This document shows, in pieces, positions 9,139-62,827 of a stretch of DNA of 64,000 nt. A program made the translations under genes and the position numbers. Source of the DNA: Psammoneis japonica (taxonomy: Eukaryota). The notes under the pieces were generated by a model that saw only the letters and a list, made by a program, of their open reading frames with translations, was not told the DNA's origin and searched no databases. The stretch lies in contig QPGO01000195.1 of the NCBI GenBank assembly GCA_008632985.1, positions 62,001 to 126,000 of the forward strand, given 5' to 3'. Within the stretch, counting starts at the first letter, position 1, and each line of letters opens with the position of its first letter.

Positions 9139-9216
9139 GGTGGGGTGGGCCAAGGCTGCTGTTAGAGAGCCACAACACGAACAAACGCGCGTGCGCACAA
9201 GCTAAAAAATGGCACC

Positions 9217-11601: not shown

Positions 11602-11639
11602 GGAGGACGTTAAACAAGGAACACCAAGTCGACAAACCA

Positions 11640-13440: not shown

Positions 13441-14763
13441 TAGGCTCCACGGAGCCAAGTTGCCGATTGCCGCCCACAACTGCAAATGCGGCATTGCACA
13501 TGTTTTGTTGTGCATCGATGCTCTGAACCTGTCCACAGTTGTGGATTGAAAGGACTCTCAGGCGAATCTAAGCCCCAGGCAGCAGCCACTAATGGGCTGT
13601 GTAATTTTTAAGAATTGAATTGAATTGAATGGGCTGCTGTTAGAGAGCCCCACCAGTGCCGGCACGTAAAATTTGACTTGTGTTGTGTGCGTCAAAGCAC
13701 AGGGGTCGAACGAAGGCGCACCGGGTGCAGTGCGTGCCGCGCGTTCAGGAGAATTCTGAAGCTCGGACCTCGACAATTTTCATTTCGGTTGCCGTAAAGC
13801 TTACGCAGGAATTAGTAACATTTCTGAATGTGCTGAGTTCGAATGTACATTCTACACACAAAGTCATGGCATTAATTCTACGAAGGCACACAAAAATGAC
13901 AGTGATTGAGAAATTTAGCAACGGTCATGTCTCACTCAGAATCTCTCGGAAATTCTTTCGCGCTTTGCAATCACAACTCGTCGTCTCGCACGATGTGTTT
14001 GTTGTTCGCCAAGCCGGAAGCCGTAATCTCCGAGGATGGCTCGCCCTTCCTCTGGATTGAGAGCTCGCTCTTGTTTGGCATTCCACAACTCATTTTGCTT
14101 GATGGCGTGTTGTCTCTAGGTGGCGTAGGTGTTGCCAGTTAAGTCCAGAGGTCGGGGCAAATCGAGTGCGTCTCTCCGGCCTTGAGTCCATGTCACTCTC
14201 GTGTCTTTGAGCGTAGGAAGTTGCCTGTTCGCTTGACCCGTCAGGTCACGGCTGTTGAAACAGACAGCAGCGTTCGTCTGTGAAGCAGCAAAAGCTCGCC
14301 AAGCAGATCATGCCGTTGACGGAATGCGGGTTTGGGGTTCCGTCGTATCAGCATGACATGATACGGTAAGTCTTCACTCGCAGGGAGTGTTGATTTAGAA
14401 CGCGGTTGACTCGCAAGTTTTCTTGTTGTCTCCGTAGTACGTCCCCCCTTTTACATTTTTTAGAGTGATATTTTTCACTCTGAAGATACGTAAAAGCTGC
14501 GAGCGCCATCTTTTGATGGGGCTCTTGAGGCAACGTTACCCTACGCAACCGATTTCAATAGCTACTTCTGATATTGGTGTGTTTCAAATCGTTGAACCAC
14601 TATTGGAAACGTTTCAAATAGAAGCAGAAAGACTAAAAGTACAATGTAGCAATCTTTATTTGCGTGTAAGTTAATTCCGTACGTACGTCAATAGACTACG
14701 AAGGCGGTCGTAGCTCTCGGATCAGCATGAAGAGCAGAGCTGTCAAGAAGCTCAATTAAAGCT

Positions 14764-17700
14764 CTAAACCATTCGCGAGAAATGGCGAAGAAGACAAAGT
14801 GAATGCTGCATCTTATTCCGAAGAGCATCGGATGCCGATTGTTGAGCGACGCGCAGCGCTGAAACGGTTTCTAGGAGATGATGTCGTTGTTTCTTCTGGC
14901 GTTCTTCGTCTTCATCGAAACCTTTAGTTTCATCCAGCTTGTTGTCTTGCTTGTCTTTCCTTACAGAGTCGTCTATTCCTGCAACTGTATTAGTGTGCAA
15001 ATAGAGGAATCGATGTAAATAAGCATTGGTCGTTTCGTAGTCCTCGCGAGATTTGCACGCCTCTAGAAGCCACATTGAAGCCAGACAGAGAAGTGGCAAC
15101 CCCTCGTCCAAATCATGCATGCCATTGCAAAGAGTTGAAAGTGCGATATCAATAGCCGACGGTCCTAAGCCTGCCATATAGTCTGTAACCGACTGAAATC
15201 GACGACAGCCGTCGTCCTCATGAGAAAGTCGCCGGCTGTGGCAATCTTGTAACAATCTTGCAAGGTGAGATCGAAAATGCGTAACTTTCATTTTCTTCTT
15301 GTTCGGAGCTAGAGCCAGCCATTCTTCATCCTCCTCTTTCTCTTCTGCCTCGGCTTTCTTTTTCGATCCAAATGCCTTCTCATCCATGTCGTCATCATCT
15401 GACCAAGCCGCTTCCCATTCTCCTTCTTTGCCTCCAGATTCCGTATCCATGTCTTTGGGTACGGCGCTTTCCTCCGGTGTACTCGCAGCACCACCCATGT
15501 CTTGCCCCCCTCGAAACTGCAAGAAGAAGGGCGCCGCAGGTGGTTTCTTGGGCGCTTCCTTGGGCTTGTTACGTTCCTTCACAAGTTCCAAATGAAACAG
15601 ATTCTTCCAGTGAGACGGTGGTAGTCCGCTCAACGTTATTAACCCTTCCTCTTTGGGGATCGTTGGTCCGTGCTCTTTGCTAGTGCTAGCCGAAGCTTCT
15701 CCGCGTTCTCCTTCCGGTTTGAATTCTTCTGCCGTTTGGTCACTTGCTAGGACTACCGCCGTGTCCTGCTGCTCTGCAAAAGGAACGGGCTGGTTCATTA
15801 GCGCCGGTGCTGTGGGATTCCTACCACCATTCACATGAATCGTTTGGTAAAAACTCTTGTCACTCCACAGTGATATCCCCAACTGACTGGAATGGGTTGT
15901 AGCAAACATCTCACCAGTGGGACTTGTAGCTAAACTTGTTGGAGGCGACTCAAAAGCTAGCCAATCCACACATGTATTGGTTGGGACGTCCCAGACACGC
16001 ACTGTTCCGTCCAAACTAGATGTCAGCAAAGTTCGCCCATCCGGTGTAAAGTCCAACCCGGATATCTGGCCCGTGTGGTGACAATCGTCATTTCCTCCAA
16101 ATCGTCGAACAATCGACAGGGCCACACAGTCAAACAAAAGTACAGTATAATCATAAAGCGCAATTGCTGCAAGATCCGAGGCCCGAACATGACGCAACTT
16201 GGTGGCTGCACAGGGTAACATAAAGGGAGATTTCTTGTGTGGGGCATGCGTTTTAAAATGCCACAAGGTCAACTTGGAATCCATCCCAACGGAAACAACT
16301 GTTTTGTTGAGAGAGTCCACAGCCAAGCCAGTGACATCCATGTCGTGCGCTGCCACGTTTAGGCGCTTTTGCTGGTGTAGCAATTGCGCCTTTTCCTTGT
16401 CTTGATCCTCCTGTTTCTTTGCTTTTGTCACCTTGGCACTCTTCTCCAATGCCCGCATAGTTCGATTGATATCGCCCGCATGCGCGTGTCTTCTCTTTGG
16501 CTCATTCGCGCTTTGGTTCTTTGGAGGGTACGATCCTCGTGGAATACCGGATTGCACATTGTACTTGTAGACGACACCACTACGCGTGCCAACAAGACAA
16601 TAGTTGCCACAGGCTGACAAACAAACCGCAGTCGCATGAGTTGCAGGCGGTGGTTGCACTTGCATAGCACTGACATTCCAATCCGGCTGTCTCAAGACGG
16701 GTCCGGATTGAGCACCACGACGGGTGTTCCATACATAGGCATGGGCATGGTGCTGGTGGATAGTCACGGCATCTCCCCAATCACGGCTCTTGGCATTGCA
16801 AATGACCATGTCCACAATAGGCGGCAGGAGCAAGTCTGCCGCGGCAACGCCAAACTTTTTCGCCTTCTTTGCCAATCCTTGCCCCTGACTGAACTCTCGA
16901 TCCAGCACGGAACGCGCAGATGAAAAGGATCGGAGCGTACGATCGTTTCCACCGCCACTCAGTAACTGACAGACACTCGCATCCGTACCATCCATCATGT
17001 TTTGATGCAATAGCTCCGTGCTCCTGTACAAGTATTGAATGCATGAAGGTGGTTCAGTATGTCCCGCTCGTTGTCGCAACAATCTTCCCGAATGATTTGG
17101 ATTGTCAAACACGTGCTGTTTGATGGAATTGCTCTTGATGCCGCTCGAAAGCAAAAGAGGTTCTTGCGGTAGATAATCAAGGCGAGACACACCTCCCGGA
17201 TGAACCCCCGTCATTTCACACAAGAGCGCTCTCGTCGGTATTGCTTCAGCTCCCATATCTTCCTCGTCATTATCATTTTCATTTTGATCCTTGGGAGTCA
17301 AATCCCATATACTAATCGTTCCGTCCGAACGGCCAACCGCAAGTGGTGCAATCCCATAACGCATGGCTGAACCATCTGTGCGAAAGGACAGGGAGGTAAT
17401 TGCTGAAGTATGATGAAGCGAAAATAACAGCGCATCGTGCTTGATGTTGACGAGATGAACCATTCCCGAATTAGTTCCAACCGCAACCGTGTCCATGGCT
17501 GGGGATTGTTCCAGCGCGGAAATGGCTGCAACTCTTTCAAGACAAGCAAAGTCGTGAATGATCTTGCGAGAGCGCACATTGATCAAGATGAGCTTTCCCA
17601 GGCTTGATCCCACCAAAATCTTGTTGACATAGGTCGATGGGTGCATTGCAATAGTGGGAGTTCCAAAATCTTGTGGTAGCATAGTACGATTCATAATTTG

Positions 17701-18596
17701 TAGGGAAGTTCGACCCGCCAATATCAATACAACTTGCCCACTGGATGGTTCATAACCGTCACTGGTTGAGACAGACTCGTCGTCTTCATCACTACTGCTA
17801 CTGCTGCTGCTGCTATCATTATCTTCCTCACTGCTGCTATCACCAAGAACGGGTACCATGTTTGGAGCCTGATTGCTGGAGCGTGTTTGTTTTTGCTGCT
17901 TGGATACAATCACGGCAAGCACCTTGGTGTTTTCTTTTCGCCCCGTCTCACTACGCATCATTTGAACACGACCCAAGTCTACCATATCAACAATGGAATG
18001 CGACTTGGAGGAGGAATGGTTCGATGATAATACCTTTACTGTATCAATCGGTCGTGTTCTGGAATAAAGCGTTACATGGACTCTGCCATGCACGGCTACT
18101 GTGATTTCCAAACTAGGATCGGATTCCACACAAAGTATGTCATGCGGACCACAGCTTGCGATGCCAGAGTCGGATGCAGTCCATCACACTGAAGCACATG
18201 GAACCGATTCCCAATGGGCAAGGTACAAAAGGACGTTAACGACGATGAACCTGTATGAGTCAAGCAGTACGGCTGACCGCTCGAAATGATTCCCATGGTG
18301 CGATAGGGAGCGTACAGACGAGAGCCTCCGTCTGGAAACGAAGTTGTGGTGCAAGTTGATGTTGAGGTTTTTTCTTTTGTTTTTGATAGAGTAGCAGGAG
18401 CAACAGAGGACGAGTCGTCGTCCGAGTCTTCAGAAGAAGAAGAAGAAACTGGTTTAGGTGCTGGTGGAGGAGCCACTTGTTCTTCAGGCACTTGTTCCGC
18501 TGCTTCGCTATCGCCATCTTCATTCACACTGGGCGACAGTTTTATTGGTTCCTTTGCAGGAGGCTTACTTCGCTTCGAAGATCGTGTTGACACCAT
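14764..18596 (-). CDS. UTP21: U3 snoRNP WD40 protein UTP21/WDR36 (apparent frameshift near 18148)
   Basis: N-terminal SRLYAPYR, HPSTYVNKIL, multiple WD repeats, Utp21 C-terminal ITLSGLPPSHWKNLFHLELVKERNKPKEAPKKPPAAPFFL. Confidence 0.9.
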
Positions 18597-20299: not shown

Positions 20300-20907
20300 T
20301 AATAATAATGATGATGCTCGAATGGCAAAGTAGTAGTAGTTGACTCTACTGAATGAGTTGTTTCAATATTGTTGTACATTCTCATGAAATCTTTGTCCTT
20401 TGTCACATTTCGGCATTCAATGTAAACAATAAGCTGCGACTTCATCTGAGCTCTACACTAGTGATGATGACGCTCAAGGACGAACTATTAGACTAGTTAT
20501 GGTTTTTCTTTTTCTAACCTCCTCTCGTCGCTCGGTACGGTCATCTTTGTTTCAGTACAAAGATTAAAATGCTAAGCTTCGACTTCAAGCGAGCTCTCAT
20601 AATAGTACTAATGATGATGCTCGAATGGCGAAGCAGTAGTAGTTACTCTACTGAAGAAGTCGTTTTCAGTTGTTGTATGTTGCCTTGGTCACACTTCGGC
20701 ATTCAATGTACACACTAAGTTGCTACTTCTAGTGAGCTCTACACTTTCGTGACGATGATCAATGACGAAGCAGTAGTTATGGCATTTGTTTTTCTAACTT
20801 CCTTTCAACATGTATTAAAAATAGTGAAACATACAAAACATCGCTCGGTACGGTCATTTCTGGTTTTAGTACAAAGAATGCTAAGCTTCGACTTCAAGCG
20901 AGCTCTC
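20300..20907. repeat. Diverged tandem duplication (~300-bp units) of a 3' UTR/convergent intergenic region
   Basis: Both units run from AATGATGATGCTCGAATGGC to CTAAGCTTCGACTTCAAGCGAGCTCTC (ending ~20598 and ~20907). Confidence 0.85.
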
Positions 20908-22279
20908 CTCCATAACAGAAGGCGTTTCGTCTTCCGATTGCCCTTTGCTTTCTTTCTTCTTGTGCTTCTTTTTCTTCTTTCGTTTTGTCGCGTCCTTTGT
21001 CTTTTGAATGCCTGCTCCCATGCCATCGCTCATTTTCTGAAACATGTTCCTATCCTTCACTTCTTCCCCTTGTTCGTCAGTTAGTCCTTGCTCGCCGACT
21101 AGTCCTTGCTCCTCATCGGGATAGAGATCCTCCACAGTATCCGGTTGGGGTGGAGCTGGGATTTCCGTCTTGGTGTAGGCATCAAACGTATTTGGATCAG
21201 GAAGCGCAGCAAGAAGTACGCCAACCCTTTCCGTGTACTCTTCCTCCGAGTACTGATCTTTGTACTTCTCAAGTAACGCAAGCTGTTTTTCAATTTCGGC
21301 AAGCTTGGCACGGCGGACGGCAGCAAGGGTAGCGGCTCTTGCCACAGCCGCTTGTCGCTCGTCCACCACTGCCTCTTGCTCGTCCACCACCTCCTGGCCT
21401 TCCTCGATACCTTTATCCGTAACCACCACAACTCCTCCTCCCTTTGCCTGTACCAATAGGGAGAACAAAGGCACATTAGAGAGGTTGAGCACAATTGAAG
21501 TAGTGCGATCGCAAGAAGTCACTCACCTGTACTTCTTCCTCCTCTTCCTCTTCTTCTGCAGTGTTCTCTTCATCTTCTTCTTCGCCTTCTTCCTCTTCAT
21601 CAATGGCTGTCTTGGCACAAACGGCGCACCAGCCATCCTCCTCATCCTTGTCTCTTGCATTCTCCCTCATTCGGATGAAGACTGGTACAGGCTTCGGCAG
21701 GCAGCATGCGAGACAACACGAAAGAAAGAACAAGATACAAGCAGCCGTGCTGACCCATGTCGACGTCGCTGGGCTGCAGGGGAATGGACCGTTCTTAAAA
21801 TTCGGATCGCATACGGGTGCTAAATAGATAAAGAACGTCAAAGCTTGACCGACAAATGCGACGAAGAACGCACAGGAAATCAACAGTCGACTGCAAGGGT
21901 ATCGGCAACAAGTTACTTCGAAAATGATGAGTACCAAGCCCACAATGCCTGCAATCGCTCCCATGTAAGCTCCAACCCTCGCGGCCGTGAACTGGCCAGA
22001 AACCACGTCAAAGTCTTCAGAGATCTCGCGGCAGCCTTCATTGTTTCGGTTGTAACGATAGAGCCCGACCGTGGCAAAGGTGATGTTGAGGGTGTCTGGA
22101 GTCCTGTTATCGTCGACTCCTTCCGGAGGTTCGGTTGGCTCATAATTAATGAATTCACAAGCACCGAGAACGATAATGGAGCAGATCACCGCGCAGACTC
22201 CACAAGTTACATGGAGAACGCGAAGCGTGATTCCTAACCAACCTTCACAGGCGCTCACTTTGCGCTTGGCGCTGCCCAT
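20881..22279 (-). CDS. Four-TM (claudin/tetraspan-like) membrane protein with acidic/coiled C-terminal tail (intron 21526-21448)
   Basis: Four hydrophobic Cys-rich helices, VGLYRY loop; GTGAGT...CAG intron joins ORFs 21476-22279 and 20881-21522 in frame. Confidence 0.75.
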
Positions 22280-22856
22280 GGTTCTTGTTGTTGCAGAGTG
22301 TCTCTATTGTCGCTCTGATTTTTTGTTCTCTCGTGTCGATCTTCGGACTACGTACCGGTAACTTCGCGCACCAGCTGACAGCTCTGACGGGGTGGGTTCT
22401 CGTCCGTTGCACCTTGATCAGAGATCGTGTGGGCGAGTCTTATCTTCAAGTCTCCAGTCTTGAACATGACCAAGATTTCTATAACCTTATTTACATGGCT
22501 GAATAGATTTCATAAATTTTTCGTAAATCTTGGCAGCTGCGCCGCCGCCCGTGTGGCTGGATGCCAGATGCCAGGTCAGCTGGTTGTTCTCTCATCTTTC
22601 TCGATTTGTACCTCTACTCCAGAGAACACTGTACTAGCTAGCTAGTAGTCTAGTTTTCCTACAGGGTAGCCACGTTCTCTACACAGTATATTTGCTGAGA
22701 ACTCACCTGTCAACAATCGCGCTGTTTTCCAGCCATGTTGCTGTCCTGCTGCATGTTTCATCTCTGTCGTTTAACCCCGAAACTCAACTGGGTGCAAATT
22801 AATTTACATTGTGCTATTGCGATAGTATTCATGATTTAACGAGTAAGAACTAGAAC

Positions 22857-23426
22857 TTAAATGCACATGATTTTAACCAACATGAAATGAATCTTCAACC
22901 TCCCCTCGAGCAAAAAGACAAGGAAAAGGAACTGAGCATCGTCAACCGTCTCCATGGGAAGAGTTTCGGGAGCAGCTTCTTCGGTACACGCTTCAGCCTC
23001 TGGTTTCTCATTTCTGTGGAACATTTTGTTTGTAGTGTTGGTGACGCCGGCACCCATTTTCTGAAACACATTCTTTTTCTGGGCTTCTTCGTGTTCCGAA
23101 CCTTCCAGAGGCGTCTCTTCGCCTTCAGGCGTTGCTTCTCCTTCTCTTAAAGAAGCTTCAACTGCAAGTGCCTCTTCTTCCACCTCCTCTGCCGGAGCAA
23201 GCAGGTCCGTCTTGGTGTACGCATCGCACGTAGCCGGATCCGGCAACGCTGACATCAAGTGGTGCACCTTCTCCTTGCACTCTTCCTCTGGCAAATGCTC
23301 CTTGCAGCGCGAGAGGAGATCGAGCTGCTTTTCAATTTCCTCCACCTTTTCGCGACGGAGGGCTTCTAGAGCGTGCGTAACAGCCACCGCTGAGTCTTGA
23401 TCTTGGGGGAGCACTTGGGTTGTCAT
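22857..23426 (-). CDS. Paralog of the C-terminal domain of the 20881-22279 gene, partly TpA-mutated, possible stop read-through
   Basis: EIEKQL..L...K....EEE....V..L..ALPDP.T.DAYTKT and FQKM shared with the neighbour; Tyr replaced by Cys at aligned sites. Confidence 0.65.
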   Translation of the reverse strand: MTTQVLPQDQDSAVAVTHALEALRREKVEEIEKQLDLLSRCKEHLPEEECKEKVHHLMSALPDPATCDAYTKTDLLAPAEEVEEEALAVEASLREGEATPEGEETPLEGSEHEEAQKKNVFQKMGAGVTNTTNKMFHRNEKPEAEACTEEAAPETLPMETVDDAQFLFLVFLLEGRLKIHFMLVKIMCI

Positions 23427-24799
23427 GGTCAATAGATGCGTTGGGGTTCTCGTCGTTTTGTCGTTTTGCGTTGTGACTGCGATCAGTCGCGTGTCGCAAG
23501 TCGCGTGTCACGTCGTTGTTCTTTTTGCTTGCACCGCAAATTCGCGTGGGACAGGTTCTGAGCCTCGTGACAGATGTGGCTTCGACCAACCGGTCTGCGC
23601 CACTTGCTTGGGGGCTGCTTTCTGTCAGTCATCATCGGGAAGAATGCTTGGAAGAAGGTGACAGAGGGCCGAGTGCGCTTCAATGGCAAGCAATGAGGCA
23701 TTTGGTGCTCTGTTGGTGCTCAAAAACAACTTGAAGAGAGGAAGCAGAATGGGTGTGGCCCAAGGGGACTCACGCGCTGGAGGCACAAAAGGGCCAGCCG
23801 CAAGAGAAACAAGGTGATGCCAGGGTTGGACAAAAGAGGGGCTGACCAAGCACCAGGAGTGGGAAAAAGTGGGTTGTTGATGACCAACAAAAGAGCACAG
23901 CAGGAGAGCAAGCTGGGGCAAAAGTTTTGGTCACAAAAGGGGTCAGCTCTGCTGCCACCTCTGTCGGAGCAGGGCACGAGGTGCCAAACAACAACAAAGG
24001 AAGCAACAATTTTGATCACTGCCTGGAGGTGTGGGTGCTTGTACAAGCAACATTGGCATTGCAGCAGCAATCTGTGGCAGTGCTGTGGTGCTCCCAGTGC
24101 ACTGAGATGGGGGCAGATGTGGAGTCGTTGCAAAGATTGCTGTTGTTGACAATTTTGAGAGTTGTTTCTGAGTTGGAACATGTCACCAAGAAAATGTTTG
24201 GATTCACTGAAGAATGGAGCAGAGCCTGCTCCTCATGCTCGCCAGAGGCATGACTTTGAGGGTCAGCCAAGTGCTTGATCTCTGTGATGTGAGGGGGTCA
24301 CTGTGCTTGCAGCAACTTGCAGTTGGAGCGCAGTTGCGTCAACACACACCCATTTGTTGGAGGGAGAGCATCAGCTGTGCTGGCTTGTGCAGTGAAGGCT
24401 TTGTGGTTGCACATCTCATCCTGCAAATTGGGGGAGTCTCATGACACAAGATGTTGTTGGCTGCTCCTGCCATTTTTCAGCACAGCTCATGACATGCGCA
24501 TTCCCCAACGACAAGGTCCGCAAGGTGCTGGGTGTCTCACAACCTGATGACAGGGCACAGGCAGTCTGCCACAGATTGTGCATGCTCGTCAGCATGCCAT
24601 CTTGTGTGCATGCAATGCACCATCACCATCTGTGCAGACAACTCTGGCAGGACCCAAATGACTGTCAGTCCCTCACCTCAAGAACTTTTGCTCCTGTTTG
24701 ACCAGCACCAAGGCGCGCAGTTGTCCTGCTGCACACTGGTGCTCCTTGCACTTGCCATTTTCTCATTTCACCTGGCTTGACATGCAAAATTTGACATGA

Positions 24800-27000
24800 T
24801 GGCATGGAGCCACATTTCTGTGGAGCACCGCCCCCGTCAGGCTTGTTCTCATGTGGCAGTGTGCACCACAGCTTCTGTGGTGAGTGCAGCTTCTTCTGCT
24901 GTGAGTGTGCCACCCTGTGTGTCATCTTTGTCAACCAACTTCATGTTCTGCACTGACTGAAAATGAGCACAAAAGTCAAATTTCTGGCTGCCCAACACAT
25001 GGGTTTTGTGCTCTGTTGTGCAGCTCTCCTGCAGGCTGCACTCCACCACATGTTTCTTTTGATCATGGCTGCAGTCATGCTGTGTCACCTGGTCAAGTTC
25101 AGCCAAGAGTTTGGCTCCTCTGCTGAAGATTGCCTGGGCCATCTGTGCAGCTGTGCCTGCTTGATGATGTTGGACATGATGCTGTCAGCAAAAGCTTGGC
25201 AGGTGTTTCAGCAACCAGCAATCTCTTGAACCAACCTGCGACAGGGTTGGCCATTGCAGCTGATGCCCACAAATGTGGGGGCTTCTTTGCTTGTTGCTTG
25301 GCTGTGCATTCCTCTGTCACAGTGTTTCACACAGACAGTTTTCTCGTGGGCCAATTTTGGCCATGTTTTTTGGCACCTTCCAACATTTCTGACTTTGACA
25401 TTTGTCTTTTGACGTGCTTTCCACTGAAGCACATGAAGTGCACTGCAGCTCACGCAACATGCCAGCAGAAGCATTGGGTGACACAAATGTCTCAGCTTGT
25501 GTCTCTCTCTGGAATGGCACAGCTGAGGATGACATCAGCCCATCGCCTGCTTCTGCAGCAATGCTTGGACACATGATTTTGTCCTCACAGCAGATCAGCT
25601 GTCTTGTGGATGATGTTTCCCACCCCACGAAAAGAGTGCAAGAGATGCTGGTCTGACACACACAGGCTTTTTGCAACAGGCTCTCATCTTTGTGCTGCTC
25701 AACTTGCAGTTTCTTAAGGGGGGTCATTTGCTGCTTTTTTCAGCTTGAATTTGACTGAACAGCTCACAATTTGCATGATTTTCACAGTGCTTCACCGAGG
25801 TGAAAACATCAAGACATTGCAAGTCTGTGATGGAGGTGGTCCATCTGTCAACTCTCATTTGTTGTTTGTGTCCGTTGTGTGTCAAAGGCTGCATGTGCAT
25901 CTGATGTTTGAGGATGGGCCGCTGCATTTTTGAGCTGTGTCGACATTGCCATCATCTTGGTGCTTCGATCACGGTGCCTGGTGCTCTTGTTTTCATGTGC
26001 GATGGGGGGGGGTTGAATGCAAACTCAAACAATTTTTGCATTCAAAAACAAACACTGCAAATGTCCTCATTCAAATGCCATGGCAATTCTGGGACAAACG
26101 CAGGGGTGATCACAGCAACCAAGCTGCTGTGGTGGCCTTTGATGTGCCACAACTCAGGCCCGCACTCTTTGCACATCAAGTGTGGCTCCATGTCAGTGCC
26201 CATGAAGTTGTCCCTTTGTGCAGCAGGAGTGGCCATGTGCCGCTCTTCTTCAGGCACACAGGAGCACACCAGGTGGCTGTGCCAATGACAAAGACACCAA
26301 AGGTTTTTGGGAGACACTTTGTTGTGCAGGTGTTTGGGAGGTTTGGTGCCACCGTGAAGCCAAATCTCTTTGCATTTTTCTTTCCAGATTGCAGCACATT
26401 CTCTGCACAAATTTCCACAGCATGATTTCAACTCCTTTGCTTTCGACTTTCAGCACAAGTTTCAAGCACAATTCTGCATGCTCAGACACAGATCATTGTT
26501 CTGCCCCTCTTGCTCCCTTTCTCATTCCAAGTTTTGTCACAGCGAACTTCCAATTCATGAAGGATGTCTGCACTTGGCATCCCAGTGTGGGGCCTTGCAA
26601 TGCTCTCAACAGGACACCCCAACACTTGCTGTGGTTGAGGCCCCTTTGCATTTTGTCATTCTGGCTTCACACAACATGCCCCCTGTGCAACTCTGCACAT
26701 GATGGCACTTTCTTTTGACCATCTTTCATGTTGGAGCTCATTGGATGTTTCACCCCAGGAAGTTTTTTCTTTCTTTTGCATGCTTCATCTTCAGAGAGAG
26801 TCGCATGTTTGGTTTTTCTGCAGCACTTTTGTTGTGACTCCCATGTGGTGTGGGCTGGCTGGGCTGGCCCATTCTTTGAAGCACAGCAGCTCCATTTGCC
26901 ATGCGACAATCACACAGCACCATTTTGGCTCAAAGCTGTTGGGTGTGATGGGCACTGGTGTCTTGCAACAATGCATTGAAAGTCTTCAAATTGTCCCTGC
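24800..27000 (-). mobile_element. Ty3/gypsy pol remnant (RT - RNase H - integrase order)
   Basis: CVIV..GKWSC (~26900, cf. CTIVLPWGKY), ECGPELWHIKG (~26150, cf. EYGPELxYIKG), EQHKD (~25690), LWASAAMANPVAGWF (~25250, cf. ALTMIDPATGWFE); heavily degenerate. Confidence 0.5.
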
Positions 27001-27839
27001 CACCCTCTGGGTGCTGGCAGTGAGACAACAGCACAGGTGATTTCTTTTTCTTCTTTGCATGCCAAGTGTCAGCACATTGTGTGATTGGCACTTGGCATCA
27101 TGTGCTTTGCACGTGAGATTTTCTTTGACCAGTGCACACAGTTGCTTGTGATGCTGTGCAACAAGAACCCAGCTGAGCACTGCTGAGATTTTTGCTGCAA
27201 CAAAATGCTGGCAGTCTGCCAGCCTGCACATTGATGAGCACACTTCAAGCAGTTTGCTGCAATCTGGGCATGCACACACACAATGACTCTTTGGGCATCA
27301 CCTGCCTTGCAACATTCCTCAACATGACCCTCCAGCCCCAGTTGGAAGTCCTGCCTGCAAGTCTTGCAAGGGCCAAACATCTGAGTGGCACAACACATCT
27401 TGGCAGCAGCCAACCACCCTCACAAATGAGCACAGCTCTTTCTTTGTCTGTGGCTCAGCTGCTCACTTGACTGCCTTGACCTTCTTCATCAATCAAGTTG
27501 CCAAGAAGTGCCTTCCCCAGCAACTTCACATGCCAAAGGTTTTTGAGCAAGTTCAACAAAAGACAGGCTTTGTGGTGCTCACCTCAAGCCTGCCTGGTGT
27601 GTTGAAGCCTCTCAACTGCTTTGTCCCAGTTTCTCAAGAAGGTTGCCAAAAGCAAGCACTCTGCAATGACTGAAAGATCTCTGTGTGCACACACACAAAG
27701 GACAAACCCTGGAGTGGGCCAGACAATTTTTCCTGAATGTTGGGGGGGGGGGATGTTTCAGAAAAATGAGAAGCTGCAAAGCTTCCTGGGCATCAAGTCA
27801 AGGGGCACATGGTGATGACCCATGCTCAGATCCGGGGAT

Positions 27840-28236
27840 GACGTGCTCCAGCTCTGGGTGGGACCTTGCACTGCTGCACTGTGACATCAATGGTTTTTTG
27901 GATCATGTCGCATGTCGCGCATGCACATTTCTGTGTGTTGCATTCTACGAAATTGTTTCATGCTCCCTGTTTTGCGAAGCCAAAGGCTCTCCATTTTCAA
28001 CATTTGTGAGAGTGAAAATGTGCTGGGTGTGTTCTTCAATGTCTGAAGAATGCAACCGGGCAAACCATCAATGATGCACTTCAAGTGTGGAGGAGGAGAC
28101 ACATTCACAAAATTGCCTCTTTTTCTGTTGGCGGTCATTTGCACTTTCATTGCAGCACAAATTTGCTGCGGAGCTCGCACGCAGAATTCTGCGGGCCCAA
28201 TGTCACACGGAGTCCCACCCAGGACTGGAGCCCGTC
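27840..28236. mobile_element. MITE-like element with 25-bp terminal inverted repeats
   Basis: GACGTGCTCCAGCTCTGGGTGGGAC (27840-27864) vs reverse complement of 28212-28236 GACGGGCTCCAGTCCTGGGTGGGAC (22/25); related to 57810-58504. Confidence 0.7.
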
Positions 28237-29261
28237 GGATGCTGCCTGCTGGACTCAATGCATGCCCTGGACATGAGGAGCCAGGCACGCAGCATTTGCT
28301 TTGCCCATTTTCTCAGCTCACAAAAGCAAAAAAAGCCGTGCTGATGGGTCTTTCTTGGGTGTTGTGAGCAACGGAGCTGCTGACTTTAAAGCACTGGTGT
28401 TGCGTGGCATTTTTGTCTCTCTGTTTTCAACATTTGCTTGCAACACCTTAGAATCTTGTGGGGTCTGGTGCAGCACAGCTCAACATTGTCCTCCTTTGGC
28501 TGAGTGTGGTGGTGGGGGCACCTCTCCAGCCACTTGCCCAGCATGCAGTCAAGCAATGGCTTGTGCGCTTTTGAGGAGAGAGCAATTTTTGCTGCTGAAC
28601 TTTGTTCAAACTTCTGATGTTTTCAGCAACCTGTGGCAAATGTGAAGCCTGGTGCTGGGAACCCAGGGCAGCTGCAATTTGCTCACTGATCCTTTTTTGC
28701 CATTCTGGCTGGCTCTCTTGGGTGCAAAACGCCATTGTGCTTGCAGTGCCCATGCCTTGCATTGGCACCATTGGCAGTCAGCCATTTGATGATGGTTTGT
28801 TTGGAGAGCAAAGTGCTGGCTCCATGAGTTTCTGAAGTGCTGCACCTGGCAACCAGCACACCACACAATTGCAGAGCTTTCCATTGTGCAAATGGGCTGC
28901 AATTTCTAACTCAGCTGCTTTGAACATCCATGAAAGCCTGAGTTGAATCTGTTGGCACTTGCTGCTTGCTGAAAATGGGCCAGCCACTGTGTGCCCCAGC
29001 CAGTCTTGGCAGTGTTTCTTTTTGCCACAATTTTTGCAGCAGCCTCTGTCCACTGTCTCACAGCACCAGCTCTGCTGTCCAATGAAGCCTCCTCCACCAT
29101 TTTTGTTTTGCCTTTGTTGTGCATGGTTTTTAAAGCTGCAAACAGAGTTGGCATCTCTGTTTTTGTGATTTGTGAGTGGCCCACAGCTGGCTGCACACCA
29201 AGACATTTGTGCACGAGGGCCAGCCATCACAACTGCACTTCTTGTCCTTGTGCTCACAGGA

Positions 29262-30471
29262 GACCAAAAGTGCTTTGAGGAGTTTGTTGAGATCCTCAGT
29301 GATTTTCTTGTGTGCTTGGTTTTTTTCTTTTTGTCTGGAGGCAGTGCTTTCTGGGCCACTGCGCTGATGATGGTGCTCAACTTTTGACCACATCCCAGAG
29401 AAGAAAAACACTCCTCCTCTTCTCTGGCTCAACTGAGAGAGCACCCAGTCTTCATCTTGACCTTGAGCTTCAAACTGCTGCACTCTTAAGATTTTTTGAT
29501 TCCTTTTGAAACCTGCCGTCGGCATCTTCACCCTGTTGAAAAAATGGCGACAGACTCTGAAGCTGTGCAGTCAAGAGGTTCAAAGCTCCAGAGAGAACCA
29601 AACCTTTTGTGAAGTGCTGCACATTCAGAGCTCTGCAATTGAACAAAAATCTGCCATTTGTTGCCTGGCAACAACAGCTGCAGATTGTCACCTCTCTCAA
29701 CTTCCAGAGGAAAATTCTTTGAGCAGCTGTCCAGCTCAGCAGCCCTGGCAACATGCCCCCCCCCCCCCCCCTCCACCAAGTCTTTTTCATTTTTGCAGGT
29801 CTTCACATGAAGCAGATCAAGGGGCACTCATGCAGCAGTGCTGCCCTCTGGGGAAAGAGCCAGTGTGCATTGAGAAATTTGCATGTGAGAGCCATGCATG
29901 TGCCCCTTGTTTTTAGATTTGCTGAAGACCAAAAGTGCTTTGAGCAAACCCACTGAGATCCTTGGCAATTTTCTTGCACTTGGTTTTCTTCACATTGAGC
30001 ACTTTCTGGACCACTGCATCAATGATGGTGTTCAACTCTTGACTGCCCTTTTTTGCATTCAGCTGAGAGAGAGAGAGTGCCCGCCAGTCTTCATCTTCTT
30101 GACCAGCTGTGCCAAACTGTGGCTTGGCTTTTTTTGGAGCTTGCCTTTGGCTGGCATCTTCAACCTGCTCAGCTCATTTGCAAAAAAGCAACACACACTC
30201 TTCTGAAATTGTGCAACATAAAGTGGGCCAAAGCCCTGGAGAGCTGTGAGGTGTTGTCGTGCACTCAGAGCTCCACAGTGCCACTTGAACAAATCTGCCA
30301 GCTCGTTGTCTGGCAAAAGTGGTGGATCATCTCCTCCCTCAGCTGCTTTGAGCAGCTGTTCAAGCAAGCAGCCCTGGCAACACAGCCCCAAGTCTTTTTC
30401 ATTTCTGCAGGTCTTCACATGAAACGCCTCAGCCCCAAGCAGCACTTTTGCAGCAGTGCTGCCCTCCTGGG
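29262..30471. repeat. Diverged tandem duplication (~600-bp units)
   Basis: Units start GACCAAAAGTGCTTTGAG (29262, 29927) and share CAAGTCTTTTTCATTT.TGCAGGTCTTCACATGAA and GCAGCAGTGCTGCCCTC. Confidence 0.8.
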
Positions 30472-31764
30472 AAGTGCACCTTGGTCACTGACTCCATGCA
30501 CACTCTGCACAGTTGGCACTCTGTTGCCTCATTGTTTTTGAATTTCATGACAGCATCACACCATCCAACAGCATGTGCGTCATCAGCTGGCAATGTTCTG
30601 CTCTGACTGCAATGTTCTGACCATGGACAGTGTGCTCACAATTGCACAGAAAGTGAAGGCACTTTTTGTACATTCTGCGCACTCCATTGCTGAAGCACAG
30701 CAGCATGCTCAGCTTGCACACTGAACTGTTGTGATCCATTGACAACTTGCGCAGCTTGCTCATCTGGCCCTCACCCTTCTGCAGCTCCTTCAGAGGGGTG
30801 GTCCCTTGCAGGTTAAGAAGCACCAACTTCATTGCACAAGATTTGTCTGCACACTTGCTGGGGCAATGTTGCTGTGCCTCACACACCAAACTGGGAGGTG
30901 GGCATTGAGCAGCTGCAAAGATTGCTCTTGTTGACAATTGTGCGTGCTGTTTCTGCTTGACGCATGTTGCCATGGGGGTGCTTGGTCATGCAAGTTGTGC
31001 ACACACACACACACACACACATGTGCACACAGAGAATGTCTGCACCAACAAGCTAACAGCTTTGCTCCAAGTGCCCATCTTGGTTCTCAGTGAATGCTGG
31101 GCAACCTGCAGCATTGTGCATCAAGCCTTCATTCCCATGGGTTGCTTGCAGCTGATGCACAGTTGTGCAAACATGTCCGCTCAGCTGAGCAAGAGCAGTT
31201 TTTGTTGATGCCCCCCCCCCCCCCCCCACACACACACAATGTGCGCACAACTTGCACTCAAAAGGGGGAGTGTTTCTGAGGGCACTCACCACATGGGATT
31301 GGAAAGTGTGAACAAAAATTTGCCAGGCATGTTTTTGGCATCTGACTGATGAACAGTTGTGCACACCAAGGAGTCCATGGGACCACAAAATCACCCCTTT
31401 CTGTGTTGGTGACCGTCGATTTGTTCAGCGCCTGACAGGGAGCTTTTTGTGCTGCAGAGCTCATGCACAGAATTCTGCTGGCCCAGTGTTGTGCAGAGCC
31501 CAACCTGGGAGGCAGAGAACATTCCCAGTGGTGAAAAGAGCTGCCAACAAAAAGTGTCAAAGCCTCAGCCTGGTCCACACATTTGTGCACAACAGCAATT
31601 TTGCAGAGGTTGTGGACCCCAAAAAGGGCTTGCCAAAAATGTCACATGGCACAACAAGCAAAGTGCCATGCAGCATTTGCCAATCACCAAAAAAGAGGCT
31701 GACTTTGCCCAGATGCCACAGCCATGTCGCGTGCAGGGCCGCACAAAACACTCGTCAATCAAGA

Positions 31765-31904
31765 GCAAGGCACTCTGACAATGACCCAAATTTTGTTGCC
31801 CATCATCTTTGCCCTTTGGTGGAATGCATGCTGTGCAAGGCACTCTGACAACAATCTAAATTTAGCTCATCACATCTTTGCCCTTTGATGGAATGCATGC
31901 TGTG
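31765..31904. repeat. 70-bp tandem repeat x2
   Basis: GCAAGGCACTCTGACAA...CTTTGCCCTTTG.TGGAATGCATGCTGTG at 31765 and 31835. Confidence 0.85.
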
Positions 31905-32162
31905 ATCCAACAGTCACAACGCCTCATGACTGTGCTGCAATCAAAACCCATCAAATCGACCAAACAAAAACACCACATGTCGGCACAGATAGACCCCCGT
32001 CCGTCGGACTGAGAGCGGTTTGCTGGTTCCCTTGTTGATCATGCGCACTTATTGCGCGTCGGTGGAATGTCGATGGAAAGATCTCGAAAGCTTTCGCCAC
32101 CGCACCGCAAGCATTGGCTGCTTTTCCTCTTTATGTTGTCCGATTGAACAATAACTTGCACC

Positions 32163-33080
32163 ATGTCGAAAGCAAACACGGCACCCATCAAATGGGCTCA
32201 ACGTTCTGACTCGCTCTATATTACAATCGCTCTTCAAGGTAAGGATTCGTCGCGTAAGATTTGAGTTGAGGATCGAAAGATACCGCAAACATGCTGTATC
32301 GCACCTGCTGCCGACACGTCGCTGCGTAGAAATGTACTGAGTTTCTACGTGTCTCTTCATAATTTCCCTCCAACCTTACAAAATAATTTCAATTGCTCAA
32401 ATCGCAAAATCAAAACAGACGTCAAGGATGAAACCATCAATTTGACCGATAAAGAACTGCATTTCAAGGGAAAGAGTGGTGATAAGGATTACGAAGTGAA
32501 CATTGAGTTCTTCAAGGAGGTTGATGCAGAAGGTTCAACGTACAACGTCCTGCCACGAAGTGTTCAAATGCACGTGATGAAAAAGACTTCAGATGACAAA
32601 GACGATGACGATGATAAGGAAGAGTTCTGGCCTCGACTTTTAAAGGATAAGGTGTTGGAAAAGAATCAAGTCAAAATTGACTGGGATAGATATGTCGACG
32701 AGGACGAAGAGGACGAAGCAGGCGGTTTTGATACGTCGGCACTTGAAGGTGGTATGGGCATGGGTGGAATGCCAGGTATGGGAGGCATGGGAGGCATGGG
32801 TGGAATGGGTGGAATGGGAGGTCCTGGCGGTATGGGAGGCATGGACATGGAAGCACTTGTAAGTGATCTTTGCCTGTAAAGTTGGCGTGTCAACCATTCT
32901 TGTTGTTGAACGAATTGTTCGGCTCACATTTTTTCTTGCTGTTGATGAAACTTCTAGATGAAGCAGATGGGCGATATGGGTGCCGGTGCAGGAGGCGTAG
33001 GAGGAGATTTACCAGATGATGACGGCGATGATGATGATGACGACGACGACGACGAGCTTCCAGAAATGGAGGAATCCTAG
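32163..33080 (+). CDS. HSP90 co-chaperone p23/Sba1 (exons 32163-32238, 32419-32858, 32958-33080)
   Basis: PIKWAQRSDSLYITI, FWPRLLK, KIDWDRYVDEDEE, GGM-repeat and acidic tail. Confidence 0.92.
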
Positions 33081-37807: not shown

Positions 37808-39378
37808 ATGGACAATGAGAATACTTCCAACGCCGGCCCAGAGTCATTCCCTGAGAAGGTTGAGACGAGTGTTGGGGTTTCGGCAGAGAACGCGATGATT
37901 GAACGAGTATCACACACGAGAGACCATAGCGACTCTGATGAGGCGTCGGCAGCCTCAGATAAAGGCTCTCAGTCAATCGAGCAAAAGGAGGAGGAAGAAG
38001 AATTCATAATACCAGAACGGTTCTCTAAGAATGGGCGACGAAAAGCTGTGTCGTTTCCGCTAAAGGTATGTTTCTCCGGCCCACTCTAGCTAGAGTGCGT
38101 GTTATCGCACTACATCTAACCTCGTCTCATTCGTTTCACTCCTGTTAGCTCATGAAGATACTTTCGTCCAAGGACAATGAAGATGTCATAGCATGGCTCC
38201 CCGGTGGAAAGGCCTTTTCGATCAAGGACCAGGAAAAATTCACTAGCGACATACTCCCCGTTCATTTTAAGCAGTCCAAGTACACGAGCTTTACCCGTAA
38301 GCTCCTCCGATGGGGCTTTACTCGCATCAAAGCTGGTACCTATACTCACGAACTATTCCAGAAAGGACGGATAGATCTCGTAGAGCAAATGTCATGCAAA
38401 ACAAAGGTTATGGCCCTGCCTCAACCTGCGCCCTTTTCATCACAAATGGGTTATCCGGGATTTCCAAGCTCCATGTCTCAGATTGCAGCAATACGACAGC
38501 AGCACCAGCAACAACAATCCATGCCTATGGTTCTTCCAATGGGAGGAGGGCCAGCTATGGGTGGTGGTGGAGGCGGGATGGACCTGTCCATGCAACAACA
38601 GGATGCCTTTGCTCGGATGCAACATCAGGATGCTCTGAACGCTGTAGATCGGGAAATCAACAGAGTGCGAAGACTGTTACAAGAGAAAAGACTTGAGGCA
38701 TCCTCATCAGGTCCACAACAACAAGAACAGCAGCAACAAAATCCATTTTCAAATCCCATGGCATCTATGCCAAACCCAGAAAACGTGTCACAGCAGGGGC
38801 AACTGGGTGCAATGGGACAACAGCTTGGTATGAGCCAACCACACAGTAGCGGAGGCCTTGGATCAATTGGCGTCATGCAACAGGCACCAATGCAGTCACA
38901 TGGAATGGCATCACTACCAAGCCACCCAGAGAGCTCTTCGTCTCAGCCTTCATCCGCGCTTAGTCCAGTTGACATTGAATTGGAAGTACGAAGACGTCTC
39001 CGCCTTCGGGAACACGGATTGAATCTGGATGTAGCATCTATGCCCTCGTTGCGAGAGCCGCCGGGTATGGCATCCTTGAGAGAACCGGGGGGCATGAATC
39101 GCGCTAGCGGAGGAATCGATCCAGTTCCAAACGTAAACCGAGGAAGTGTTGGGGGGGTTGAACCTTCTTTGCAAAGGGGTATGATGCCTATGAGTCCACA
39201 GCGACAGCCACAACAACTGCTTGGAAATGCTGGACAGTGGAACATACCTGGCGGAAACATGGGTGGCATGAACCCTAACTTAGGGTTTCCCATGGGCAAT
39301 ACTGGTGGCGCAGGCTATAACATGTCTGCAGGGAATATGCAGGGACGGTCAGGATCAACGCCTCCACCCTCACCTTGA
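37808..39378 (+). CDS. Heat shock factor (HSF)-type transcription factor (intron 38066-38148)
   Basis: FPLK|LMKIL..IAWLPGGKAF..FKQSKYTSFTRKLLRWGF DNA-binding domain; Q/G/M-rich tail. Confidence 0.9.
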
Positions 39379-49104: not shown

Positions 49105-51344
49105 TTATCCGCTTGCCCTACGAGCCAACTCCTCCTTTTCTTCATCATTAATCCACCTCTGCTTTAGAGTGGAAGTCGCCGGCCAGGGTCGAGCACCGAC
49201 TTGGCTCACGGGGACTCCAGTTTCCCTTGCAATGATGCTGCGTACTCTAGCTTCGCAACAATAATTGTCCGGATCTGCCTGGCAGTGTCCCATGCCAGCC
49301 CTGGTTCTCTTTCGAATGCCTTGCGAAGAGTCAATCGGTAGCGATCGCCTAAGAGAACGGACAACCTCCAGTTCGGTTACCTTTTCACACTTACAAATGA
49401 CATTCTTTGCCATTTCCTCCATATTGCTTCCGTCACTATCATTTTTTCCGACGGGGCCCATCTTCAATCCCTTCATCCCGTCTTTTGGCGTAATGATGGG
49501 GGCTCTGTTTGGATTGAAGGTGGGGTCGCGTTTCAACGGGAGACCTGCCTTCTTCAACATCTTGACTACGTCGACAGCAATAGCTGGCGACCCAGCGAGT
49601 CCTGGAGAGTCAATCCCAGCAACGTGAATCATATTATGGTTCTTCTTGGAATGCTCAATGATCCAGTCGCCACGATCGCTTTTAGCACGAGCCCCACAAA
49701 AGGCATGAAAGGTTTCCTTGGCGTCAAACGTGGGTACAAGGGCCCTGCACTTCGATAGAATGTATTCCTGTACAGAAGCGTCTGTCATGTCTCTTGCCTC
49801 TGGCTTATGCATATCTCTCGCCGTTGGCCCCAGAATGAGGTTGCCCCACAGGGTAGTTTGCACCAAAACTCCTTTCCCGAGGACGGGATCAGGGCAGGGA
49901 AAAATTGTGTGCTTGCTAAATGACCCTAAACGCATATGGCATTTAGCATTAGTGAGCAATGATTCGAGTGTCGGGTGGCTTTGCACAAGCGTCCGTAACT
50001 TACCTGATTACGATTCAGCAAAAGGTAATCACCCAAGCGTGGTTTGATGGAGAACGACGCATCACCGATCATACCGGCAACCTGATCTGCGGCACCGCCG
50101 GCAGCATTGATGATGAAGCGGGTCTTTATCGTCTCCTTTGTAAAAACCTTACCACCCATGACAGTACCAGCACCAGATCCACCAACCAGCATGTCCTCGA
50201 CTTCAACTCTTTTTTTCGGCATCTTACCTACTGGAAATCCGACTGCTTTCGCAACCCGCCGAATGGTGCCAAGGATGCCTGTGCTACCAAATGAGTCGTA
50301 GCGTCCACCCTCGGGTCTGCCAGCTGTTTCGACAATGTCCTTGAGAGGGGTGCTTTTCTTGACCTCTCTCGATAGAGAAGGGATGATTATCTTTTCCAAT
50401 TTAAGAATCACCCATATAACAAGAAGAAACATGCCATGTCCGTTTTGTACCGGGGGAGGGGTCATTACGCCTAATCGACAAGCGAAGTAGTGCAGAATGA
50501 CAACAACTCCAATCAGTTTGAGGACCGCGGTCAATAAATCAGCCTTACCCACTTTTCCTGCCGCGTCTACAAAGTCCTCTGGTTCCCAATGATTACAAGA
50601 TACCTCAAACCCGCCATCCACTTGACGGATTTCTGCCACCTGGCGACGAATACGGAGCTCCACCCCGTTGTCGACGGCGTTTTCTGCCAAAGCAATGGTA
50701 AATTCATAGGGGATAACGTTTCCCGCATCAGGAGAATAAAGTGCGGCTATTGCATCAGGATGGATGGCAGGCTCCATCTCGCGCAGTTCTTTCTGATCAA
50801 TAATCCGCAGTCGCTGCACCCCGTTGGTCTCTCCGCGACGTTTCAAGTCACCCAAGTGCTTGCGCTCTTTTTCTGTGAAGGCAACTACAAGACTACCATT
50901 CTTCTGGTACCCAAACCGTAGCTCCTTATCTAGGCCAGCAAACATCTGATTACCTTTCCAACAATACTTGGCGCGAACCGACCCAGGCTTATCGTCATAA
51001 CCAGCGTGGACTATGCCTGAGTTCCCTTTCGTTGCGCCTTGGCTGACATCATCAGCTGTCTCAATCAGCAAGACGCTAATGTCATACCTACTCAATTCTC
51101 TCGCAATCGACGCTCCAACACAGCCAGCCCCTACAATCAAGACGTCGTAACTTCCATCTTCCTTGGAAGCAATGTTTCGACTTCGACTTCGGGGGCAAGC
51201 TTCAGTAAAGTCGCACCCGCTGCACTTTTCCTCGGATACGTTGAACACACCATCGCAGTCTTCAATATCCAGCCAATCGCCGCCATAGTAGACACCCTTA
51301 ACACCGTGCTGGCGTGCTGGTTGGGAATTAGTCTTTGTCGACAT
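49105..51344 (-). CDS. FAD-dependent oxidoreductase, GlpA/L-2-hydroxyglutarate oxidase-like, with C-terminal BFD-like [2Fe-2S] domain
   Basis: DVLIVGAGCVG, ATKGNSGIVHAGYD, GIDSPGLAGSPAIA, ICKCEKV...RTRAGMGHCQ; intron ~50003-49926. Confidence 0.88.
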
Positions 51345-51742
51345 GGCACGCTATGCCTCCTTCTCTACCGGCACTGTAGGTAAGATCCAATGTTTGATGG
51401 CAACAAAGAGAAATTAGGCGTCGTCAGCGGTTTGTTTTTGAGCATCGTGTCAACGCCGAGCGACGTGCGTACTACGATGGGTGCAAGTATTGAGTTACAT
51501 ACATATATCGTAGAATGTTGATGAAAATTCCAAAAACACGTAAGATCCTGTAGATTGCGTATGACGCTGGAGGTAACAATGATGTATTCAGACTTAAGAA
51601 ATCATAAAAATGTAGCAAGCGCAAGGACGCGCTCAAAAATGAGAACCCAATCTCTGATGTTGACACTCACGATACGCGATAAAAAACACAACACATCAAC
51701 AACGACAACACAGGAGCGAGATTTGTGCCAATCCAAACCACC

Positions 51743-62370: not shown

Positions 62371-62827
62371 CACACTGCGACGTGCAATCTACGTTGACAC
62401 CCTGCATGTGCTTGCCATGTGTGCATTTCAGTGCTGTGTCTGCGGCAACAGCCTGCGCTTGCTCTCTTCGCTGAACATGAAATGTCAACCACCCAGCAGC
62501 ACACAATCAACGCCGACTGCAGCAGCATCTCTCTCTGTCAACACCGGCCCCATCCTTTGTTTCCATTGGCAATGTCTCCATCTCCATCAAATTTGGCACC
62601 AATTGCAAGCACAATGCACTTTGCTGCCTTTGTGCAAGTGCAGCCATGTCTGTGTTGTTGATCAGCCAAATCCTGCTGCAAAATTGTCACTCTTGTTTTT
62701 GACAGAAACAGGCACAAGTGCTCACTTGAATTTTGGAATTTCCTGTTCAACAGGAATCCTGCAGCCATTGAAGAAGCAGAGTCACCCGCGCATGCACGAA
62801 ACACACAAATTTGTTCTGTCCCAGACA

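Follow-up and report, generated by a model that had tools for sequence, protein, structure and literature searches.

The closest described system is that of the chlorarachniophyte alga Bigelowiella natans, in whose mutation-accumulation lines 230 of the 231 mutations within two regions of integrated viral DNA changed A to G or T to C, always at the dinucleotide TpA, and for which a DNA adenine deaminase resembling ADAT2 has been proposed (Mettrop et al., bioRxiv 10.64898/2026.01.13.699255). Full-text literature searches returned reports of this TpA signature for B. natans only, in the same 2026 preprint, and nothing for diatoms. A second point of reference is repeat-induced point mutation (RIP), whose leakage into adjacent single-copy genes has been described in ascomycetes (Rouxel et al. 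2011, PMC3105345). Here we describe a 64,000-nucleotide stretch of the diatom Psammoneis japonica (contig QPGO01000195.1, positions 62,001 to 126,000; hereafter the window), in which a small gene, gene B, lies between a paralogue, gene A, and a repeat block that has lost nearly all of its TA, block 2. Gene B in the window is very probably a damaged allele, or a near-identical copy, of an expressed diatom gene, hit by the same TpA-specific A:T-to-G:C process as block 2.

The locus resembles the integrated giant-virus and virophage DNA of B. natans in several respects: the changes are A:T to G:C only and at TpA only, yielding TpG or CpA according to strand; they are confined to particular regions in sharp contrast with their neighbors, with states that differ from line to line or from molecule to molecule within a strain; and the affected clusters (here blocks 1–3 of the window) are depleted in TpA and enriched in CpA and TpG. 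It differs in its host, a stramenopile, and in the far more complete erasure of TA, with a relative abundance (rho) of 0.03 in block 2 against 0.45 in the nucleocytoplasmic large DNA virus region of B. natans. Further differences are the lack of a viral or transposon domain in block 2, the loss of CpG as well as TpA there, and the nature of the sequence changed beside it: not foreign DNA as in B. natans, but an ordinary host gene, which has lost its stop codon.

TpA-restricted differences among contigs of one sample

Contigs from two sequencing runs of one sample, X1 and X2, were compared with the window over positions 20800–32300. Contigs lose variants, and a missing contig version is no evidence; the same holds for the lack of X2 cover over the intergenic stretch and the block. 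X1 is colinear with the window through the gene A intron, covers the intergenic DNA and the block, and behaves as genomic DNA. X2 covers genes A and B only, and its contig over gene A (record 8; 1380 bases, 20855–22313) lacks exactly the 79 bases of the intron, which confirms the splice. Because this contig is intron-less and cover is confined to the two genes, X2 behaves as RNA of the strain.

Over gene B, which lies about 600 bases from gene A (Table 1), the X2 contig (record 10; 481 bases, 22863–23343) aligns without gaps and differs from the window at nine positions, at every one of which TA in X2 corresponds to CA or TG in the window. All nine alter the product (Y41C, Y44H, Y50C, Y67C, T77A, I135M, K140E, Y147C and TAG165CAG): the X2 version encodes a 164-residue protein with six tyrosines, and the window version keeps one of the six tyrosine codons. 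The X1 contig spanning gene B and the adjoining part of the block (record 2; 22628–25860) carries seven further differences from the window, again all TpA-type, with TA in the window at five and in X1 at two. The changes are strictly TpA-specific, since all 16 differences found with X1 and X2 between 22628 and 23343 are transitions between TA and CA or TG (P ~2e-11 under random transitions), and none lies at CpG. They are also confined to gene B and its flanks: gene A has no difference in 1311 bases of X2 or in 1470 bases of X1, so that differing bases in X2 number 9/481 in gene B versus 0/1311 in gene A (Fisher 6.8e-6), and changed TA sites 9/15 versus 0/41 (Fisher 6.6e-7). With the nine sites restored, the 481 bases hold 15 TA (3.1%), matching the density in gene A exon 2 (3.0%).

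Two readings would place these differences outside the evolution of the DNA. That the genome carries CA or TG and RNA editing returns the transcript to UA is suggested by the TA version having been seen only in the RNA-type run, X2. We regard this as highly improbable: read on the sense strand, it would require seven G>A and two C>U changes, and no enzyme producing G>A in RNA is known to us; like differences occur at seven sites between the window and X1, both of them DNA sources; the protein family marks the TA state as ancestral (see below); and the RNA of gene A has no differences. To a similar degree we discount an artefact of assembly, polishing or base calling at modified bases, whereby the CA and TG letters of the window would be wrong. 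The disagreement of the window with X1 at seven sites would suit such an artefact, and X1 may be the source data of the assembly. Against this, the X1 contig, which was built separately, has the same letters as the window at all nine X2-specific sites, the TA-free block is reproduced in X1 (records 3, 5 and 6) with 0–3 differing letters per contig, and errors would not be confined to TpA near the block while sparing the 41–45 TA sites of gene A.

At least three states of gene B, those of the window, X1 and X2, coexist in one sample. Nine of 15 sites are changed in the window and 11 of 15 in the X1 contig, each with private changes. The contigs represent either two haplotypes (all-TA and all-mutated) resolved as different mosaics, or at least three coexisting lineages. 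The only RNA-type contig found over gene B carries the unmutated version, whose DNA template may be a second allele, a second locus or a subpopulation. Contig depth was dropped as a guide to copy number because X1 record 2 includes repeated words. That all nine changes between X2 and the window alter the product is near the neutral expectation for TA-based changes, which suggests that the copy that was hit is not under selection.

Deaminases that act on selfish or foreign sequence, such as ADAR in the hyper-editing of double-stranded RNA and APOBEC on retroelement cDNA, likewise produce clustered transitions, with ADAR favoring adenosines preceded by U (Mettrop et al., bioRxiv 10.64898/2026.01.13.699255). 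Their substrates are RNA or reverse-transcription intermediates that have yet to integrate, whereas here a resident gene with intact flanks has been changed in place, with absolute TpA specificity and on both strands: 12 of the 16 changes are A>G on the sense strand of gene B and 4 are opposite (p 0.077, not significant), a hint at most of strand bias.

Protein family and the polarity of the changes

Gene B and the last exon of gene A encode products that are 37% identical (core tblastn E 2e-17), and by sequence comparison the two genes are real paralogues. Their nucleotide sequences agree at 243 of 459 positions (53%), with saturation at synonymous sites, and gene A carries Phe at the position matching the third Tyr-to-Cys site of gene B (codon 67); the pair alone is therefore unable to polarize the changes. 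The preliminary description of this DNA had presented the pair as displaying the mutation directly, for which it is too diverged. Gene A was dropped as the nucleotide "before" state, as it gave no usable TA asymmetry: where aligned positions have TA in gene A, gene B has TG three times, TC, TA and AA twice each and five other dinucleotides once each, and the reverse comparison (TA in gene B) comprises six sites only.

The family itself provides the polarity. A hidden Markov model profile from the alignment of genes A and B, searched against 1.84 billion representative sequences, yielded 18 relatives (E 3.9e-24 to 5.6e-4); none was left out of the resulting 20-row alignment, which includes genes A and B. 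By contrast with the profile, a homologous-protein search with gene B gave 611 candidates, none at E<=0.01, and no Pfam family reached its cut-off on either gene. The family is small and so far found only among diatom-like sequences. Its domain is a helical hairpin, modeled by AlphaFold2 with helices at residues 11–61, 68–80 and 85–92 and a per-residue confidence score (pLDDT) above 90 over residues 21–80. The conserved family core, which gene B shares apart from its lost tyrosines, is EIEKQL..LL.KYK..EEEY..V..L..LP.P.TYD..T, and the motif of the hairpin reads EIEKQL..LL.KYK..EEEY..LPDP.TYDAYTKT. In the longer members (gene A, P0002, P0005 and P0012), a region of four transmembrane (TM) segments precedes the hairpin. 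This N-terminal region is absent from gene B, with no match to a 4-TM exon for it anywhere in the window (tblastn), and many relatives are likewise short.

Among the 29 alignment columns with at least 70% consensus, gene B agrees with the consensus at 24 of the 26 non-Tyr columns and at none of the three Tyr columns (Fisher p 0.0027). At those three columns, the other 19 sequences have Tyr in 17, 19 and 16 cases and never Cys. The codon in gene B is TGC each time. Because Tyr predominates and no relative has Cys, Tyr is ancestral and Cys derived in gene B. An otherwise intact domain combined with lost tyrosines fits recent mutation-driven damage rather than slow divergence. The preliminary description had proposed a TAC-to-TGC direction, and this is supported on grounds that do not depend on gene A, namely the family columns and the TAC codons of X2 at the same sites. 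Its quoted coordinates and codons (GTA at 21262 and 21235, GCA at 23304 and 23277, CAG at 22934..22932, the FLFLVFLL tail and the DAY motif) are accurate. To the changes it listed, the present comparison adds a third conserved Tyr-to-Cys replacement (codon 67), a Tyr-to-His (codon 44), a Tyr-to-Cys (codon 147) and three further residues.

Turning to the stop codon, the 24 codons that follow the CAG of gene B read FLFLVFLLEGRLKIHFMLVKIMCI. The closest relatives of gene B are only 42–59% identical over the core, so none is a true orthologue by which to place the stop. The observation named in the preliminary description as refuting, orthologues with Cys at these sites and the same extended C-terminus, is not borne out, since no relative has Cys. 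The C-termini of the relatives are not alignable, so that the sole witness to the stop loss is the X2 contig. That contig bears out the suggested change from TAG to CAG by reading TAG at codon 165, and places the FLFLVFLL stretch, previously described as resembling an untranslated region (UTR), within the 3'UTR of the unmutated transcript.

These data bear directly on ordinary paralogue divergence, under which the cysteines and the longer C-terminus would be old, selected features and the low TA a consequence of amino-acid content. Genes A and B are indeed old paralogues at 37% amino-acid and 53% nucleotide identity, and the TA count by itself is marginal. Nevertheless, we consider this reading to be barely credible, given the absence of Cys from all 19 other sequences at three columns, the existence of a same-sample version with Tyr and TAG that differs at TpA sites only, and a tail that has 3'UTR composition and is 3'UTR in the X2 transcript. 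Derivation of X2 from another species is argued against by its lack of any difference over 1311 bases of gene A.

TA depletion toward block 2 and across the window

The loss of TA is graded toward block 2, as the preliminary description had also noted. Rho TA falls from 1.03 (22601–22862) to 0.28 in the gene B coding sequence, 0.09 in 23427–23680 and 0.03 in block 2. In parallel, the fraction of TA sites changed in the window, with X2 or X1 as reference, rises from about 2/25 in 22601–22862 to 9/15 in 22863–23343, and no TA is left from 23434 to 24041. The rise in the changed fraction toward the block is thus supported. Polymorphism extends out as far as 22697, a site some 740 bases away from where the TA-free zone starts and some 980 bases away from the CpG-poor block. 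Among 20 open reading frames (ORFs) and exons outside the blocks, gene B has the lowest rho TA, the other 19 lying at 0.34–0.69 (gene A at 0.45 and 0.58).

CpG behaves differently at this edge. Gene B and its flanks have a rho CG of 0.84–1.23, the upper value being that of the 254 bases upstream of the gene B ATG (23427–23680); because this segment is TA-poor yet CpG-normal, TpA loss extends beyond CpG loss. Window-wide, three blocks are depleted in TpA and raised in TG+CA, at about 8.0–13.5, 23.4–32.0 and 53.5–64.0 kb, with rho values for blocks 1, 2 and 3 of 0.10, 0.03 and 0.06 (TA), 1.37, 1.87 and 1.70 (TG+CA) and 0.75, 0.16 and 0.55 (CG). Block 2 resembles the product of methylation-driven CpG decay in its low CG and doubled TG+CA. 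Unlike such decay, the gene B region has none of its 16 differences at CpG, and block 1 combines a TpA value of 0.10 with a CpG value of 0.75. Because the gene B region is CpG-normal and block 1 lost TpA but kept CpG, TpA decay and CpG decay are separate processes.

Block 2 contains high-copy pieces: in the DNA run, word depth reaches 36,000–81,000 over 27840–28236 and about 400–1,700 over 25750–26030, against 56–90 in single-copy parts. At 27906, 27922, 27934 and 28107 most copies have CG where the window copy has TG or CA, and at 28100 most copies have TA and the window CA. A segment of block 2 (28167–28236) matches one of block 3 (57810–57879) at 86%. The high-copy pieces agree with the earlier label of a transposable-element block as far as repetition goes; the lack of a protein domain does not. 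Pfam searches of 102 ORFs of at least 100 residues from the three blocks gave six weak matches, all under curated cut-offs. The most suggestive of these, to Exo_endo_phos (E 0.0045), falls in the longest ORF of block 1 (11114–12634, plus strand) and hints at an element like a long interspersed nuclear element. Block 1 (8000–13550) is A-rich on the plus strand, with CA in excess of TG (589 vs 376); blocks 2 and 3 have no skew between CA and TG (-0.02 and -0.01).

Several observations weigh against gene B having been hit by the process of block 2. Its seven TA compare with 11–14 expected (P 0.13–0.03), so that composition alone is weak evidence and the decisive comparison is that of the contigs, and TG+CA is not raised in the gene (rho 1.10). 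Block 2 has no Pfam domain, transposon or viral, in 37 ORFs or in six frames read through stops. X2 is recorded only as "DNA?", the search for runs listed no RNA run for this DNA, and the RNA nature of X2 is deduced from the intron-less contig and from its cover, and no TA-bearing X1 contig is listed at the nine sites, leaving the unmutated DNA template unseen. Finally, ORFs at other block edges (6682–7383, 32265–32879 and 52560–53216) have a rho TA of 0.47–0.55 and no comparable spill-over. These other edges (31857–32100, 53442–53460 and 13441–13570) are sharp, TA density shifting within 100–200 bases. Because they lack spill-over, spreading does not hold generally, and some property of gene B may have made it a target.

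The last point leads to a rather unlikely but serious rival, in which targeting is triggered by homology. Here gene B would be one of two near-identical copies, with the expressed original elsewhere as the source of X2, and would have been marked either by the duplication itself or as a displaced pseudo-copy in silent DNA. In favor of this, an unmutated and otherwise identical version exists (9/9 differences TpA-type), gene B lacks the 4-TM exon of gene A, P0002, P0005 and P0012, as a truncated copy would, and the lack of spill-over at three other block edges makes duplication a serious rival explanation of why gene B was chosen. Conversely, only one X1 contig covers gene B, with no TA-bearing second one, a weak point as contigs lose variants; the TA-free, CpG-normal margin (23434–23680) and the rising changed fraction fit spreading; many family members are short, so that absence of the TM exon may be original; and gene A, untouched, is too diverged to have served as the repeat partner (68% over 159 bases). 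RIP offers the obvious comparison, being a dinucleotide-specific transition mutator aimed at repeats that overruns into single-copy neighbors, leaving these inactivated or diversified (Rouxel et al. 2011, PMC3105345). Unlike RIP, which makes C>T changes (CpA>TpA in Neurospora), creating TpA and lowering GC, the process here destroys TpA and raises GC. RIP also needs duplicated DNA and a premeiotic stage. The gradient toward the block here fits leakage.

The window is gene-dense with few introns. Intron-less host genes encode Utp21/WDR36, a cytochrome P450, an HSF-type DNA-binding protein and a DAO-type FAD oxidoreductase (Table 1). The Utp21 ORF (1139 residues) has best matches at 46–56% identity, and its named matches are all diatoms (Seminavis, Nitzschia, Cylindrotheca, Attheya and Amphora), in keeping with a diatom that lacks near relatives in the protein collection searched. 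Downstream of gene A, 20300–20598 and 20603–20907 form a tandem duplicate (70% identical over 335 bases), and the last codons and stop of gene A (28 bases, 20880–20907) are repeated exactly at 20571–20598. Internal tandem repeats of 66–78% identity occur at 43217–43823, 56181–56829 and 62813–63316; the first lies inside a 491-codon ORF (42672–44147) with no Pfam match, and the other two inside block 3.

Table 1. Coordinates of gene B, its altered sites and other features of the window. Codon numbers are those of gene B.
Feature	Position	Strand	State or content
Gene B	23426..22857	minus	ATG at 23426; 164 original codons; CAG replacing the stop; 24 read-through codons; TAA at 22859..22857
Codon 41	23304..23306	minus	TGC Cys (SRCK; plus-strand GCA) in window, TAC Tyr in X2; family Tyr 17/19
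Codon 44	23295..23297	minus	CAT His in window, TAT Tyr in X2
Codon 50	23277..23279	minus	TGC Cys (EEEC; plus-strand GCA) in window, TAC Tyr in X2; family Tyr 19/19
Codon 67 (ATC-DAY)	23226..23228	minus	TGC Cys (plus-strand GCA) in window, TAC Tyr in X2; family Tyr 16/19, Phe 3/19
Codon 70 (DAY)	23217..23219	minus	Sole surviving Tyr (TAC) in window; TGC in X1 (23218 T>C, Y70C)
Three further TpA changes relative to X2	23009..23198	minus	23198 T77A; 23022 I135M; 23009 K140E
Codon 147	22986..22988	minus	TGT Cys in window, TAT Tyr in X2, TGC in X1; separate changes at overlapping TpA sites (two)
Former stop, codon 165	22932..22934	minus	CAG in window and X1 (window 3' end GTT GAC GAT GCT CAG); TAG in X2 (plus-strand G>A at 22934)
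Read-through tail, 24 codons	22860..22931	minus	3'UTR in unmutated transcript (X2 contig to 22863); GC 37%, rho TA 0.19–0.30
Polymorphic TpA sites downstream of gene B	22697..22826		22697, 22704: window TG/CA, X1 TA; 22815, 22823, 22826: window TA, X1 CA
Gene B 5' flank	23434..23680		No TA (5–9.5 expected); normal CpG
Block 2	23681..31900		15 TA in 8220 bases (rho 0.03); rho CG 0.16; rho TG+CA 1.87
Gene A, unmutated paralogue	20881..22279	minus	Exon 1 22279..21527 (4 TM segments); intron 21526..21448 (79 bases, GT..AG); exon 2 21447..20881
Gene A, Tyr codon of EKYK	21262..21264	minus	TAC (plus-strand GTA)
Gene A, Tyr codon of EEEY	21235..21237	minus	TAC (plus-strand GTA)
Gene A, stop codon	20883..20881	minus	GAA GTC GAA GCT TAG (EVEA-stop)
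Utp21/WDR36	14764..18183		Normal rho TA (0.53–0.69 over the four host genes)
Cytochrome P450	33394..35166		Normal rho TA, as above
HSF-type DNA-binding protein	38149..39378		Normal rho TA, as above
DAO-type FAD oxidoreductase	49926..51350		Normal rho TA, as above

Proposed mechanism and significance

We propose that one TpA process stripped nearly all TA from the adjacent 8.5-kb repeat block and overran into gene B. With TAG changed to CAG, translation would continue for 24 codons into the 3'UTR. The simplest candidate for the enzyme would be a DNA adenine deaminase, converting dA to dI, which is copied as G; acting on TA, which is its own reverse complement, such an enzyme would leave TG in one strand and CA in its complement. 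It may be recruited to silent repeat chromatin, with its action spreading some 0.7–1 kb into unique flanks, much as RIP leaks in fungi.

A different chemistry could leave the same trace. A JBP/TET-type enzyme might oxidize the T of TpA to 5-hydroxymethyluracil or 5-formyluracil, which mispairs with G and so gives T>C. Since TA is palindromic, A>G on one strand is indistinguishable from T>C on the other. In trypanosome telomere repeats base J occupies the T of TpA in both strands, and A:T-to-G:C transitions can arise from 5-formyluracil. We nevertheless judge thymine oxidation unlikely, as the only published proposal for this signature, itself untested, invokes an enzyme resembling ADAT2 that would deaminate adenine (Mettrop et al., bioRxiv 10.64898/2026.01.13.699255).

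More tentatively, and with some doubt, the editor may be active now and specific to an allele or chromatin state, such that the gene B joined to the block is being rewritten stepwise in one strain and the copy that is transcribed is spared.

There is one published report of a TpA-specific DNA mutator, from a rhizarian alga and acting only on integrated viruses (Mettrop et al., bioRxiv 10.64898/2026.01.13.699255); the same signature is found here in a diatom. The locus makes visible a cost to the host, in that an ordinary neighboring gene has been deprived of its stop codon and of all but one of its six tyrosines. It also resolves before and after states at single sites within one strain, beyond what block-wide composition statistics offer, and exhibits TpA loss ahead of CpG loss at the block edge with states still polymorphic. 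As such, it constitutes a practical, amplicon-sized assay for the rate of the process, for its targeting rule (spreading or duplication) and for the enzyme. If the editor is indeed active now, gene B would offer a naturally occurring reporter at a single locus, its "before," "during" and "after" states all present in the same culture, and the process would represent a programmed, epigenetically aimed DNA-editing defense in a second eukaryotic supergroup.

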